Positions 43,694-52,622 of a stretch of 52,937 nt of DNA are shown here, one piece after another. A model generated the notes under the pieces. The model searched no databases. It saw only the letters and a list, made by a program, of their open reading frames with translations, and was not told the DNA's origin. The DNA comes from Planctomycetota bacterium. GTDB lineage: Bacteria > Planctomycetota > UBA1135 > UBA2386. Both the position numbers and the translations under genes were made by a program. The DNA is taken from positions 1 through 52,937 of the forward strand of contig VGXW01000003.1 in NCBI GenBank assembly GCA_016873195.1, written 5' to 3'. The first letter of the stretch is position 1; each line of letters opens with the position of its first letter.

Positions 43694-44809
43694 ATGCGCC
43701 ACGGACTGCTCGCCGCCGTTCCGTTCGTCCTGCACCTGACCGCGCTGCTGCCTGCCCAGGAGATCACCTGGTGGCAGAAGACCTTCGAGGAAGCGCTCGC
43801 CGCCAGCAAGGACAGCAAGGCCGCGATGCTGCTGCTCTACTGCTGGCAGGACAACAGCGACCCGTGCACGTCGATGTTCAGCGGCACGATGAAGGAGAAG
43901 GAGGTGGCGACGGCGCTCGGCGACTTCGTCTGCATGGGCGCGAAGCTCGAGGATCCGGCGCAGAAGGCCGTGCTCGACAAGTACGGCATCGAGAAGCTGC
44001 CGACCGTGCTGTTCCTGACGCCCGAGGGCACCGTCGTCGACGCCGTGCCCGGCTACGTGCCGGTCGTGGACTTCCTCGCCGAGGTCACGCGCATCCGTGC
44101 TGGCACCAAGACGCTCGCGGCGCTGCGGCAGGCGGCGGCCGAGAAGCCCGGCGACCTCGCGCTGCAACTCGAACTCGTGCACAAGCTGCGCGCGACCGGC
44201 GACAAGAAGGGCTCGCTCGCGGTGATCGACGCGATCGTCGCCAAGGATCCGAAGGCGACGAGCGAGCAGGCCGCCGAGGCGATGCTGCTGAAGCTCAGCG
44301 ACCAGATCTTCAAGCCCGAAGCCGACCCGAAGAACTACGACCTGAAGCCGCTGCGCGAGTTCCTGAACAAGCAGAAGAACAAGCGCGTGCTGTTCCTCGG
44401 TTGGGACCGCGTCTTCGCGGCGGAGTGGAAGCGCGACAACCTCAAGGTCGCGTGCGATGCCGCGGAGAAGGCCTGGAAGAACATCCCGCCGGACCAGGTG
44501 CGGGTCTGGGGCCAGGATTACGCGAGCAAGGCCCTCGAGGCCTGGAAGGAGCTCGAGAAGATCGACAAGGGCATCCTGAAGCAGGCGCTCGAGGTCAGCA
44601 AGAAGGCGCTCGACGAGGTCGAGAAGAAGCACAAGGCGGCACCCGATCCGGCCTTCTTCGCGAACGCGATGTACCTGCACGCGGCGCTGCTCAACGTGAG
44701 CAACCTGCGCAAGGAAGCGTTCGCGCTGATGGACAAGGCGATCGCGCTGGACCCGCAGAACGAGAACCTGAAGAAGGCCAAGGCCGCGTGGATGGACGGC
44801 AGCAAGTGA
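43694..44809 (+). CDS. Secreted thioredoxin-fold protein with helical/TPR C-terminus
   Basis: Signal peptide ...LLPA-Q; WWQKTFEEALA...LYCWQDNSDPC...YGIEKLPTVLFLTPEG. Confidence 0.78.
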   Translation: MRHGLLAAVPFVLHLTALLPAQEITWWQKTFEEALAASKDSKAAMLLLYCWQDNSDPCTSMFSGTMKEKEVATALGDFVCMGAKLEDPAQKAVLDKYGIEKLPTVLFLTPEGTVVDAVPGYVPVVDFLAEVTRIRAGTKTLAALRQAAAEKPGDLALQLELVHKLRATGDKKGSLAVIDAIVAKDPKATSEQAAEAMLLKLSDQIFKPEADPKNYDLKPLREFLNKQKNKRVLFLGWDRVFAAEWKRDNLKVACDAAEKAWKNIPPDQVRVWGQDYASKALEAWKELEKIDKGILKQALEVSKKALDEVEKKHKAAPDPAFFANAMYLHAALLNVSNLRKEAFALMDKAIALDPQNENLKKAKAAWMDGSK

Positions 44810-47866: not shown

Positions 47867-48173
47867 ACGGCCACGACGTCGGGCTGCCGCCAGCAGGGTC
47901 GGTTGCGCTGGCGCAGCAGGGCTTCGCTCCACGCAGCCGGGTTCTGTCGAACAAGCGCTCCTCTCCGCCCGTCCGCGGAGAGCACCCGGGCCGGTGGCGG
48001 TTCTTCGATCCCGAATCACCGTGGAGGCCGCACAGCACCCGCCGACGCGAACTCCAGGCACCGTTTCGCCGCCGCAACCCCGCGCCGCATCGGCCTTCAC
48101 GGCCGCCCTGCGTACACGACACCGCCCCGCGGTTGCACACCGCGAGGCGGGGTTCCACTGCTGCGAGCGGAGG

Positions 48174-48249
48174 TGGCTCCTCGAGTAGGACTTGAACCTA
48201 CGACCCGGTGATTAACAGTCACCTGCTCTACCGACTGAGCTATCGAGGA
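48174..48249 (-). tRNA. tRNA-Asn (GTT)
   Basis: TCCTCGATAGCTCAGTCGGTAGAGCAGGTGACTGTTAATCACCGGGTCGTAGGTTCAAGTCCTACTCGAGGAGCCA; full cloverleaf with CCA. Confidence 0.97.
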
Positions 48250-48487
48250 TCGCGACCGGGCTTTCGGCCCGGTGGGGGCAGAGACCTTAGCGGCCTGCGC
48301 GGACGGGTCAAGACTCCGCTGGCAGCGACGGCAGAGCCCAGTGCGCCACCGTGGCGAGAACAGGAGCCCCGAACAGGGGCGCGCCCGCCGGCACACCACG
48401 CGGGAACCGGCGGGACCGCCCGTCTCCGCGGCGGCACGGCCCCGAGGAGCAGGCCACTGCAGGCAGGCCAGCGCTGCCAAGGCAACG

Positions 48488-48545
48488 CCGCAGCGGCGCC
48501 GAGTGCGCGCTTCGCCCCGGACGTGTCGCCGCGTTGCGGCGTACG
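48488..48545 (-). repeat. REP-like dispersed repeat, copy 2
   Basis: Reverse complement is 55/58 identical to 21315-21372; begins 7 nt after the TGA at 48553. Confidence 0.85.
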
Positions 48546-48552
48546 GGGGGGC

Positions 48553-49134
48553 TCAGTGCTTCGCGACTTCCATCTTGCGCAGGCGCAGCTTCTCGGTGCC
48601 GGCCAGCGCGTTCTTGACCATCTCGTCGGTGAAGGCCTTCTTGTCCTTCACGAAGAGGAGGGCCTTGCCGTTGAGGCCGTTCGGGTGGACCCGGATGACT
48701 CCTTCGAGCTTGCTCAAGACGTCACGCGTCTCGATGGCCGTGCTCATTCAACCAAGTCCGGCGACTTGTGCCTCGTAGACCACCTCGGCCTTCGGCAGTT
48801 CGACCTCGTTGATGCTCTTGACCCGCACCTTCTTGATCCGCTCGTCGGCCAGCGCCTTGTTGAGCGCCTCGACCTCCGGGGGGTGCTTGCCGACGTCGCA
48901 GTAGCCGATGCCGGTGGTGTCGAAGATCAGGTTCTTGATGCCTTTCTGTTTGATCAGGATCGCACGGACCCTGGCGGCCTCGGAGGCCGCCCCTCAACCT
49001 CCCAGTCCGGTCGTTTCGATCTTGAAGAGCTTCTCGGTGCCGTCCTTGGCGGGGGCTGCTGGCGCCTGGGTCTGGGCCAGGGCCGGAAGGGCCAGGGTCA
49101 GGGCAGCGAGCAGCATGCGCGCTGGCGTTCTCAT
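48553..49134 (-). CDS. Candidate secreted double-HMA-domain selenoprotein (in-frame UGA at codons 47 and 129)
   Basis: Manual translation: MRTPARMLLAALTLALPALAQ...KLFKIETTGLGG-U-GAASEAARVRAILIKQKGIKNL...VVYEAQVAGLG-U-MSTAIETRDVLSKLEGVIRV...EVAKH*. AAGGA RBS upstream and a SECIS-like hairpin after each UGA. Confidence 0.8.
48714..48734 (-). promoter_or_regulatory. SECIS-like hairpin for the UGA at 48750-48748
   Basis: UCGAGACG-CGUGA-CGUCUUGA; 8-bp stem (one G-U), loop G 23 nt after the UGA. Confidence 0.7.
48955..48973 (-). promoter_or_regulatory. SECIS-like hairpin for the UGA at 48996-48994
   Basis: CAGGGUC-CGUGC-GAUCCUG; 7-bp stem (one G-U), loop G 29 nt after the UGA. Confidence 0.65.
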
Positions 49135-49251
49135 GTGTGCGTGGTTCCTTGGTGGCCACCGGGAATCGGCTGGCCCATCGAGCGCGGAGTATCGGCCGCA
49201 ACCGGCCCGACACGCAAGCCCCGGTATGGGCTGGTGCAGGTTCGTTGCGAG

Positions 49252-50940
49252 TCAGCCGTCGGCGAAGCGCCAGCCGGAGAGGTCCTTGCCCGGGGGAGCG
49301 TCGGCCAGCGCGGCCCGCACGGCGGCGATCGGGATCGAGTTCTGGTGCAGCACCGCGTCGTGGAAGCGCTTTTCGGTCCACGGGGAACCCGGCCGGACGA
49401 GTTCCCGGTGCAGGGCGCGCAGCTGCAGGCCGCCGAGCATGTAGGCCGCCTGGTAGAGGGGGCCGTAGCCGCCGCCGAGGGAGCGGCGCACCTCGCCCTC
49501 GGCCGCCGCGCGCTCGTGGCCGACGCGCTCGACCAGGTAATCGACGCAGCGTGGGCCGGACCAGGCGCCGAGGTGGAAGTTCAGCGAGAAGACGATGCGC
49601 GCGCAGCGGTGCTTGCGCCAGTAGAGCATGCCGATGCGGTCCTCGGGGCCGTGGGCCAGGCCCAGGTCGTAGAGCCGCATCTCCCAGTAGAGCGCCCAGC
49701 CCTCGGTCCAGAACGGCGTCGCGAACAGCCGGCGCCAGGGCCGGTGCCGCGGTTCGGCGAACTCCTGCAGCCAGTGGCCCGGGATCAGCTCGTGGTGGAC
49801 CGTGGCGCGACAGAAGTGCTCGTTGTTGCTGCGCAGCGACTGCAGCTTCTCGTCATGGCCCATCGCCGCGGTCGGGAACGACAGCCGGATCGTCTCGCCG
49901 CCGAGGAAGAACGGGTTCACCTTCTGCGCCTCGGGGCCCAGCATCGCCATGCGCCAGCACTCCTTGGCCAGCGGCGGGATCGTCAGCAGGTCGCGCTGCT
50001 CCAGGAAGTCGATCGCCTCGCGCGCGAGGTCGGCGACGAGTTGCGGCTGCTCGCCCGGCGCCCGGTGGCGCTGCTTCACGAGTTCGAGGGCCCGGCGCCA
50101 GTCGTCGCCGCAGCCCTGCTCGCGCGCGGCCGCCGCCAGCTCCGCGTCGCACCACGCGAACTCGCGTTCGGCGACGGCGACGAGCTCGGCGGGGGAGTAG
50201 GGGATCCACTCCGCGGCGAGTTCCTGCCGCAGCGCCGCCTCGCCGATCGGGTCGCCGACGAGGCTGCCGTCGCCGCCGCCGGCCGAGGCCTTGCGGCGCA
50301 GGGCTTCCTGCAACTCGCCGAGCGCCTGGTCGGCCGCCGCCCAGGGCGCCGCGACCCACCACGAGAACAGCGGGTCGTAGCCGTCGCGGAACTCGAACCA
50401 GCCGCGCAGCGCCCCGCGCAGGTCGCGGACGCGCTGGGCGGCGCGGGCCGGCAGTGCCGGCGGCAGGGCATCGAACTTCCCCTGCTGCAGACCCGCGCGC
50501 ACCTCGGCGGCGCGCCCGGCGATGCCGGCGCAGGCCGCCGCCGCGCCCTCCGGGTCGACGGGCTCGAGGCGGCGCCGCGCTTCGCCGAGGGACACGATCG
50601 TGTCCGCGAACGGCAGCAGCCCGTGCAGTGCGGCATCGCGGGCCGCCTCCGCGTCGAGCCGCCGCATGGCCGACCGCACATGGTTGTCGAGCAGCAGCCA
50701 GTCGACGCGCCGTTCGCGGTCGAGCGCCGTGAAGTCGAGCGCCTGCAGGTCGCGCTGCTCCTGCCGCAGGCGGTCGCCGAGCCGCGCGCGCCGTTCGCCC
50801 GACATCGGCTGGTCGTAGCGCCGGCCGAGGTCGGCGAGGTCGGCCGCGAACCACTCGGCGCGCTGGCGCAGGTCGGCCGGCGCCTGGGCCGGCAGCGGGG
50901 CGAGCAGGAGCAGGGGGAGCGCGCACGCGAGAGGTCGCAT
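49252..50940 (-). CDS. DUF885 family secreted protein (metallopeptidase-like)
   Basis: HHELIPGHWLQ, FWTEGWALYWE, PLYQAAYMLG, FHDAVL; signal peptide. Confidence 0.88.
   Translation of the reverse strand: MRPLACALPLLLLAPLPAQAPADLRQRAEWFAADLADLGRRYDQPMSGERRARLGDRLRQEQRDLQALDFTALDRERRVDWLLLDNHVRSAMRRLDAEAARDAALHGLLPFADTIVSLGEARRRLEPVDPEGAAAACAGIAGRAAEVRAGLQQGKFDALPPALPARAAQRVRDLRGALRGWFEFRDGYDPLFSWWVAAPWAAADQALGELQEALRRKASAGGGDGSLVGDPIGEAALRQELAAEWIPYSPAELVAVAEREFAWCDAELAAAAREQGCGDDWRRALELVKQRHRAPGEQPQLVADLAREAIDFLEQRDLLTIPPLAKECWRMAMLGPEAQKVNPFFLGGETIRLSFPTAAMGHDEKLQSLRSNNEHFCRATVHHELIPGHWLQEFAEPRHRPWRRLFATPFWTEGWALYWEMRLYDLGLAHGPEDRIGMLYWRKHRCARIVFSLNFHLGAWSGPRCVDYLVERVGHERAAAEGEVRRSLGGGYGPLYQAAYMLGGLQLRALHRELVRPGSPWTEKRFHDAVLHQNSIPIAAVRAALADAPPGKDLSGWRFADG

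Positions 50941-51041: not shown

Positions 51042-52622
<1,581 letters not shown>

Follow-up and report, generated by a model that had tools for sequence, protein, structure and literature searches.

A predicted exported double selenoprotein with tandem HMA-like domains in a freshwater Planctomycetota bacterium

Introduction

Can a reading frame broken twice by TGA be one working gene, and, if both codons specify selenocysteine (Sec), what would a protein with one Sec in each of two repeats do? These questions are raised by a minus-strand locus in contig VGXW01000003.1 of a Planctomycetota bacterium (assembly GCA_016873195.1; GTDB lineage UBA1135, UBA2386), of which positions 1 to 52,937 were analyzed here as a whole (hereafter the window). 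An initial annotation of the locus had proposed a hidden exported protein with two Sec residues in tandem domains of the heavy-metal-associated (HMA) type, which would bind soft metals or perform redox chemistry. A 2026 review of the prokaryotic selenoproteome describes 119 families, of which proteins with several Sec residues make up a small minority (PMC13188914). We found that the locus very probably encodes a genuine two-Sec, exported, tandem HMA-like protein, as indicated by the conservation of both TGA codons, covarying hairpins downstream of each, a complete set of Sec genes in the same genome, and the fold and export signal of the predicted protein.

Results

Conservation of both in-frame TGA codons

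The frame at 49134-48553 (Table 1) comprises 193 sense codons and a TGA stop, and its only two internal stops are both TGA. As first described, it runs as a single frame from an ATG with an AAGGA ribosome-binding site, and the repeat peptides originally quoted around the two TGA codons, FKIETTGLGG-U-GAASEAARVRAILIKQKGI at site 1 and YEAQVAGLG-U-MSTAIETRDVLSKLEGV at site 2, are exact. A mechanical list of open reading frames (ORFs) shows two pieces of it, a 46-aa head (48994-49134) and a 64-aa tail (48553-48747), while the middle piece between the two TGA codons lacks its own start codon in the window.

Planctomycetota genomes, together with freshwater and marine metagenomes, yielded 68 homologous loci at 20-80% identity, and all of them had TGA at both aligned columns; these loci represent 59 distinct sequences at site 1 and 57 at site 2. 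The initial annotation had considered two chance nonsense mutations at homologous Cys positions unlikely, a judgment strengthened by these counts, and conservation spans both codons. When 61 related genomes were searched in six frames, a homologue was found in 15, each with exactly two in-frame TGA codons, the identities ranging between 72% and 24%. Of 401 genomes taken from across the phylum, 36 gave a match in a profile search, and every match that spanned both sites had two TGA codons; the stop-free rows were single-domain or weak partial matches. Within the host family, the gene was present in 49 of 91 genomes, with two TGA codons in all 51 full-length rows and one in a single row cut by a contig end. 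Both TGA columns were invariant in an alignment of 14 sequences. Among 40 diverse sequences, the Sec column was the sole invariant column of domain 1, and domain 2 had three such columns, namely Sec, Gly126, and Arg137.

An independent lake-water metagenome contig had zero differences to the window across 48709-49250, both TGA codons included, which excludes the assembly error that the initial annotation had raised; the TGA agreement among metagenome contigs refers to zero-difference contigs only, and parts of the stretch were covered solely by diverged contigs. Contigs from RNA libraries crossed both TGA codons of a relative, a hint of transcription.

Hairpins downstream of the TGA codons and Sec machinery

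Each internal UGA is followed by a hairpin resembling a selenocysteine insertion sequence (SECIS) element. In hairpin 1, 98% of alignment cells were paired and five of the seven pairs showed compensatory changes, and in hairpin 2 the corresponding values were 95% and seven of eight. The covariation score of each hairpin was reached by none of 500 shuffles, and pairing fell to 31-50% in a control in which the 3' partners were slid by 1-3 columns. At least five consecutive pairs were found in 53 of the 59 distinct sequences at site 1 and in 55 of the 57 at site 2, with the loop at its canonical distance from the UGA, exactly 27 nt in 47/59 and 21 nt in 53/57, respectively. This 6-nt difference in spacing is explained by two extra helix residues in domain 1. 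The loop read CGUGN in 40/59 sequences at site 1 (AGUUC in 11) and in 50/57 at site 2. Given that the invariant Arg137 is encoded by CGU of the hairpin-2 loop, RNA and protein constraints overlap there. The assignment of both hairpins as putative SECIS elements rests on covariation and fixed spacing. An alternative hairpin immediately after the first UGA, GGCGGCCU/AGGCCGCC, was the minimum-energy fold, but it was rejected as unconserved, with no covariation at this position in the consensus fold. No conserved hairpin was found 3' of the true stop (TGA 48555-48553).

The same genome encodes tRNA-Sec (78.9 bits; identified by ARAGORN as SeC, anticodon tca), selA (459 bits), selB (334 bits), and selD (349 bits), all above curated cut-offs and on other contigs of the metagenome-assembled genome (89% complete, 3.3% contamination, 809 contigs), so that selA, selB, selC, and selD, for which the initial annotation had suggested searching, are all present. 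Among relatives, selA was found in 60 of 61, and the exception is a 73%-complete genome that still has the selenoprotein family. The selD gene itself has one in-frame TGA (G000:C405:1104-2021, locus L018), with the Sec motif GSGUAAK, and adjoins selA. Downstream of its Sec codon lies a hairpin with a 9-bp stem and a 5-nt CGGGC loop, 27 nt after the UGA and preceded by GGU, comparable to the two hairpins of the double selenoprotein. Like bacterial SECIS elements of the fdhF and selD type, the hairpins described here lie in the coding region just after the UGA and have a small apical loop with G and U; unlike them, two occur in one short mRNA, duplicated with the domain, and the loop consensus is CGUGN, with CGU doubling as the codon of an invariant Arg.

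Export signal and fold

The signal peptide (residues 1-20) is conserved and is replaced by lipoboxes in some distant relatives, in agreement with the exported protein first proposed. Its removal would leave a mature chain of 173 aa and 18.7 kDa. An AlphaFold2 model computed with the family alignment (mean predicted local distance difference test, pLDDT, 86.5; predicted template modeling score, pTM, 0.77) consisted of two βαββαβ units, each with its Sec where the β1-α1 loop ends; pLDDT was below 50 for residues 1-25. The best Foldseek matches in the PDB were the tandem HMA domains of Bacillus subtilis CopA (2rml/1p6t) and of ATP7B, with a global TM-score of ∼0.32, which indicates that the domains are oriented differently from those of these tandem HMA proteins. 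Matches to BMC-T and designed-cage proteins (TM-score ∼0.25) were taken as generic.

A structural search of the PDB matched residues 115-193, and its top 30 rows for domain 2 were all HMA domains (Z 8.2-11.2), led by ZntA (1mwz; Z 11.2, root-mean-square deviation 1.7, 73/73 residues), and unrelated ferredoxin-like folds began at Z 7.6. Domain 1, modeled alone, reached a pLDDT of 93.5. The whole-family profile retrieved 31 hits among PDB sequences, nearly all of them HMA proteins, and placed Sec129 on the first Cys of GMTCxSC; the domain-1 profile, for which 13 of 17 hits were HMA proteins, matched CopA (E 6.4e-6) and aligned Sec47 to the first Cys of GMTCAAC. In classical HMA domains, the aligned position is Cys. 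The Pfam HMA model (PF00403) matched 14 of 14 members at E≤10, the best at 1.6e-7. The second Cys is absent, as the initial annotation had stated, its place being taken by Ala in domain 1 and Thr in domain 2.

The two domains were matched to each other by hhalign with 98.3% probability (E 1.6e-14) and with their Sec columns aligned, domain 1 having one extra loop residue in addition to its two extra helix residues. In the simplest history suggested by these alignments, a Sec-containing HMA-like domain would have been duplicated together with its SECIS.

Variation within the family

Two three-domain relatives, L044 (G177:C124) and L052 (G407:C18), have three in-frame TGA codons, one per HMA-like domain (GLAU..., GGGU..., GVGU...), and would be triple selenoproteins, a rare class. 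Extra domains that lack Sec occur in L043 and L035, loops near the canonical HMA form (GMTUxxC and UxxxC) in L053 and L059, and a one-Sec form in L057. Relatives with GMTUGSC brought up the UGSC-containing selenoprotein as a candidate, which was discarded, given that this family is described as thioredoxin-like (NF041046) and was absent from our NCBIfam scan.

Cys at site 2 was found in three database proteins (P0176-P0178), in which the ORF begins after site 1 and which are known from protein records alone. No full-length Cys/Cys orthologue was detected in the 91 family genomes, the 401 phylum genomes, or the best 150 of 201 hits of the family profile to a protein database.

Besides the main copy, a further two-TGA paralogue, diverged in sequence, is present in each of two complete genomes (G011:C1:2991707-2992264 and G482:C1:583199-583756; E ∼7e-15 against the profile). 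In a low-GC marine clade, represented by metagenome contigs (L064-L067), the neighbors are a GroES-like gene and a gene for a 641-aa HEAT-repeat-like exported protein, and L067 ends in an ORF resembling a phage terminase large subunit. This clade may therefore lie on or beside a viral or prophage region.

Gene features and genomic context

Table 1. Positions of the predicted selenoprotein gene, its elements, and its neighbors in the window.
Feature	Position	Strand	Remarks
Predicted selenoprotein precursor, coding sequence	48553..49134	-	193 codons + TGA; orthologues alignable over full length
Start codon ATG	49134-49132	-	
Ribosome-binding site AAGGA	49146..49150	-	11 nt 5' of ATG; by sequence inspection
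Sec-type signal peptide, codons 1-20, MRTPARMLLAALTLALPALA followed by Q	49075..49134	-	A20 and Q21 invariant in 14 orthologues
Domain 1, residues 33-114, diverged HMA-like βαββαβ, motif G-[IL]-G-G-U-G-A-A	48793..49038	-	Sec47 in β1-α1 loop
UGA codon 47, predicted selenocysteine 1	48994..48996	-	
SECIS-like hairpin 1, 7-bp stem, CGUGC loop	48955..48973	-	Loop starts 27 nt after UGA
Domain 2, residues 118-190, HMA-fold βαββαβ, motif G-L-G-U-M-S-T	48565..48783	-	Sec129 at first-Cys position
UGA codon 129, predicted selenocysteine 2	48748..48750	-	
SECIS-like hairpin 2, 8-bp stem, CGUGA loop	48714..48734	-	Loop starts 21 nt after UGA
True stop codon TGA	48553..48555	-	
ATP-dependent phosphoenolpyruvate carboxykinase (PckA)	51042-52622	-	
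Exported DUF885 protein, upstream neighbor	49252..50940	-	
tRNA-Asn (GTT), downstream neighbor	48174..48249	-	

The order PckA, DUF885, selenoprotein gene, and tRNA-Asn is common only within the host family: DUF885 lay upstream in 13 loci, PckA in 5, and tRNA-Asn downstream in 3 of the 14 loci scanned. A scan for promoter and terminator consensus sequences returned no sites. The gene looks monocistronic and housekeeping-like and lies outside any metal-resistance island.

Just 3' of the stop, at 48477-48557, summed contig depth reached up to 475 with 'goes back 58' joints in two metagenome runs, which suggests a short repeated GC-rich element common in these communities. An exported thioredoxin-like (Thioredoxin_7/Thioredoxin_2) and tetratricopeptide-repeat protein is encoded 4 kb away (43700-44809, plus strand), and no link between this protein and the selenoprotein was found.

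Discussion

We propose that the locus is the intact single gene of a secreted selenoprotein of a freshwater Planctomycetota bacterium. SelB would decode both internal UGA codons as Sec, each via its own coding-region SECIS a few codons downstream, and the product would consist of two homologous ferredoxin-fold (βαββαβ) domains descended from the HMA/CopZ/MerP metal-binding domain. Each domain would have kept one ligand, a selenolate at the first-Cys position of the GMTCxxC loop, and outside the cytoplasm these selenolates may act as ligands of Cu(I), Hg(II), Ag(I), or another thiophilic ion. Given one ligand per domain, the second ligand of a two-coordinate site would have to come from the other domain, a second molecule, or a partner protein. 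We infer that Sec is inserted at both UGA codons, that the protein is extracytoplasmic, and that the selenolates are its functional groups. As to what they do, we lean, tentatively, toward binding of a thiophilic ion between two selenolates, because each domain presents one soft ligand, compared with the pair used by HMA domains.

Several observations weigh against this interpretation. Sec itself is assigned by deduction, and the contigs from RNA libraries may derive from carried-over DNA. The two hairpins of the window have folding energies no better than those of shuffled sequences (z -1.05 and -0.70), in a GC-rich sequence, and Rfam returned no family across 48100-49400 except tRNA-Asn. The window protein scored 13 bits against the Pfam HMA gathering cut-off of 24.8 (E 0.14), and another Pfam scan of this protein gave no HMA hit at all. 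The top seven structural matches of domain 1 were HMA domains, yet at Z 6.8-7.2 they were not separated from other ferredoxin-like folds. The two-Cys GMxCxxC metal site of HMA domains is absent, with G-L-G-U-M-S-T and G-L-G-G-U-G-A-A in its place. Neither the 1.5-kb flanks nor 20 regions with flanks of 6-8 kb contained a neighbor shared between clades, no metal-resistance or metal-enzyme gene was among the conserved neighbors in the same flanks, and the genomic context favors neither metal binding nor a redox role. Finally, a Sec-less homologue (P0003, 187 aa) carries Lys and Asp instead of Cys where the family has its two Sec residues, which would be odd for a simple metal ligand. The lineage of P0003 may have lost the selenolate function; in this protein, Glu also replaces the SECIS-loop Arg of domain 1. 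The initial annotation had seen in the locus the HMA pattern with UGA at the first Cys. Fold and profile searches agree in placing Sec on the first Cys of CxxC, whereas membership in the Pfam family as delimited by its cut-off did not hold and domain 1 is structurally weak; given the score below the cut-off and the weak structural match of domain 1, 'HMA-like' is the accurate term.

The main competing explanation accepts the same two-Sec exported protein, but has its selenols serve in redox or chalcogen-transfer chemistry instead of metal binding, for example as a peroxidase- or reductase-like selenol, as a selenenylsulfide or diselenide switch, or as a periplasmic carrier of selenium or sulfur species. 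This possibility, which we regard as serious although somewhat doubtful, draws on the residues that follow Sec in domain 2. Position U+3 is Thr or Ser in most of the 40 diverse sequences (UxxT/S), and position U+4, which is Ala in the clade of the window, is Cys in many clades (UxxTC) and could form a selenenylsulfide there. No metal-related gene context was found in the flanks described above, and Sec use is near-universal in the host order, as indicated by selA in 60 of the 61 genomes. However, the protein shares its fold and loop position with metal-binding HMA domains, all strong matches by structure or profile are to metal chaperone or ATPase domains, and the clade of the window has no resolving Cys in either domain. 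Oxidoreductases of the HMA fold are not known, which also counts against a redox role. In favor of such a role, the 2026 review gives UxxT as the motif of GPX-like and OsmC-like selenoproteins and ascribes a redox function to the majority of prokaryotic selenoproteins (PMC13188914).

Within the metal-binding interpretation, a bolder version would have the lone selenolates converge on an all-selenium site between domains (Se-M-Se, or Se3 in the three-Sec relatives), making the protein an obligately Sec-dependent extracytoplasmic scavenger or chaperone of a strongly thiophilic species, be it Hg, Cu, Ag, or selenium. We consider this unlikely: were it true, Cys would be unable to substitute, which would explain both the lack of full-length Cys/Cys orthologues in the searched sets and the loss of both ligands in the Sec-less relative.

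A different possibility is that the UGA codons are read through, but not as Sec, by suppression as Trp, Cys, or Gly or by local reassignment of the code. Its starting point is that the identity of the Sec residues is read from nucleotide data and that some database proteins have Trp at both sites. When the family profile was compared with 1.84 billion representative proteins, 201 hits were obtained, most of them fragments at profile positions 1-46, ∼53-129, and 131-192, that is, the gene cut at its TGA codons, and a few full-length hits carried W at both Sec sites. In the cluster of the best hit, full-length W forms of 183 aa were confined to contigs of at most 1.3 kb, while on contigs of up to 16 kb the same protein was split into pieces of 38, 66, and 81 aa. 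Trp at the homologous sites, which the initial annotation had named as a sign against Sec, was ruled out on DNA: in metagenome relatives of the best W hit, the 'W' codons were TGA in 6/6 loci spanning the sites, while in the same loci a genuine Trp ten residues upstream was encoded by TGG and the true stops were TAA or TAG. The W forms are therefore TGA mistranslated under code 4, and these relatives extend the family to low-GC marine organisms. Moreover, TGA is the terminator of the selenoprotein gene and of three neighboring genes in the window, so no reassignment of the code has taken place (orthologues stop at TGA, TAG, or TAA). Together with the covarying hairpins at fixed distances from both UGA codons, the complete Sec machinery, and the alignment of Sec with the metal-binding Cys, this makes decoding as another amino acid very improbable.

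That the locus is not one gene, but three small ORFs, an artefact of sequencing, or a pseudogene carrying a pair of nonsense mutations, has a negligible likelihood: mechanical ORF calling and public gene callers do split it, and most of the 201 profile hits are fragments, but both TGA codons are kept in 68 loci while the protein diverges to ∼20% identity, which together with the identical independent contig excludes these readings, each break falls between β1 and α1 inside a compact domain, the middle piece has no start codon in the window, and the divergence among orthologues excludes a single contaminating sequence.

A two-Sec, exported, HMA-like protein can be placed among known systems as follows. 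With the HMA/CopZ/MerP/Atx1 domains (PF00403) it shares the βαββαβ fold and a ligand in the β1-α1 loop after G-[ML]-x, with the N-terminal HMA domains of CopA and ATP7B the tandem arrangement (CopA being the top Foldseek and profile match), and with MerP a predicted periplasmic location. Unlike HMA domains, it has one Sec in place of a Cys pair, scores under the Pfam cut-off, and has insertions in domain 1 (one loop and two helix residues), and, unlike mer and cop systems, its gene lies outside any mer or cop operon. No model of NCBIfam release 20 reached its cut-off on any of the 14 members, and the best models, UxxU_metal_bind, MerTP, MerP, and CopZ, all stayed far below theirs. The MerP model TIGR02052 matched 11 of 14 members, only at E≥1.3e-4, and the neighbors are DUF885, PckA, and tRNA-Asn genes, with no mer operon; NF045683, which resembles a MerT/CopZ fusion, matched one of 14 (E 0.016). 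The best NCBIfam match of all 14 members was NF041115 'UxxU_metal_bind' (best E 6.4e-5), also an HMA-like selenoprotein with two Sec residues and listed as an HMA-type selenoprotein in the 2026 review (PMC13188914). In contrast to our family, with one Sec in each of two domains, NF041115 has both residues in one UxxU loop of a single 74-position domain; the window protein, which has no UxxU motif, scored 14.6 bits against its cut-off of 95 (E 0.027).

Replacement of a metal-binding Cys by Sec is known from other Hg- or Cu-handling proteins, namely NF045683, a UxxC cation-transporting ATPase, a putative mercuric transport protein, and 'MerP' of the Global Ocean Sampling (GOS) survey (PMC2398784; PMC13188914). 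Compared by their published descriptions, these are membrane or transporter proteins that keep the partner Cys (UxxC or CxxU), unlike the protein described here. The GOS survey lists two 'MerP' selenoprotein sequences (PMC2398784), and the metal-related entries of the 2026 review include the UxxC cation ATPase, the putative mercuric transport protein, and MbdU (PMC13188914). No family listed in that review covers the protein described here, and among the metal-related entries in its Table 1 none has a lone Sec in tandem HMA-like domains (PMC13188914). An earlier listing under another name is possible. A full-text literature search found no paper joining selenoprotein, HMA domain, and selenocysteine, and nothing relevant on heavy-metal-associated proteins with Planctomycetes or on double selenoproteins. 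The locus thus represents a widespread double-selenoprotein family, a variant of known HMA-type selenoproteins, that is apparently undescribed.

Given that public gene callers split the gene into two or three fragments or insert Trp, a common family has been invisible in protein databases. Its recognition adds a two-Sec family, with three Sec residues in some relatives, to the prokaryotic selenoproteome. A coding-region SECIS that appears to have been duplicated along with its domain, with the loop tied to an invariant Arg codon, provides a case of overlapping RNA and protein constraints. Finally, the family would show in nature how an HMA-type site outside the cytoplasm can be pared down to one selenolate, and offers a system for asking what Sec does in metal handling that Cys does not.

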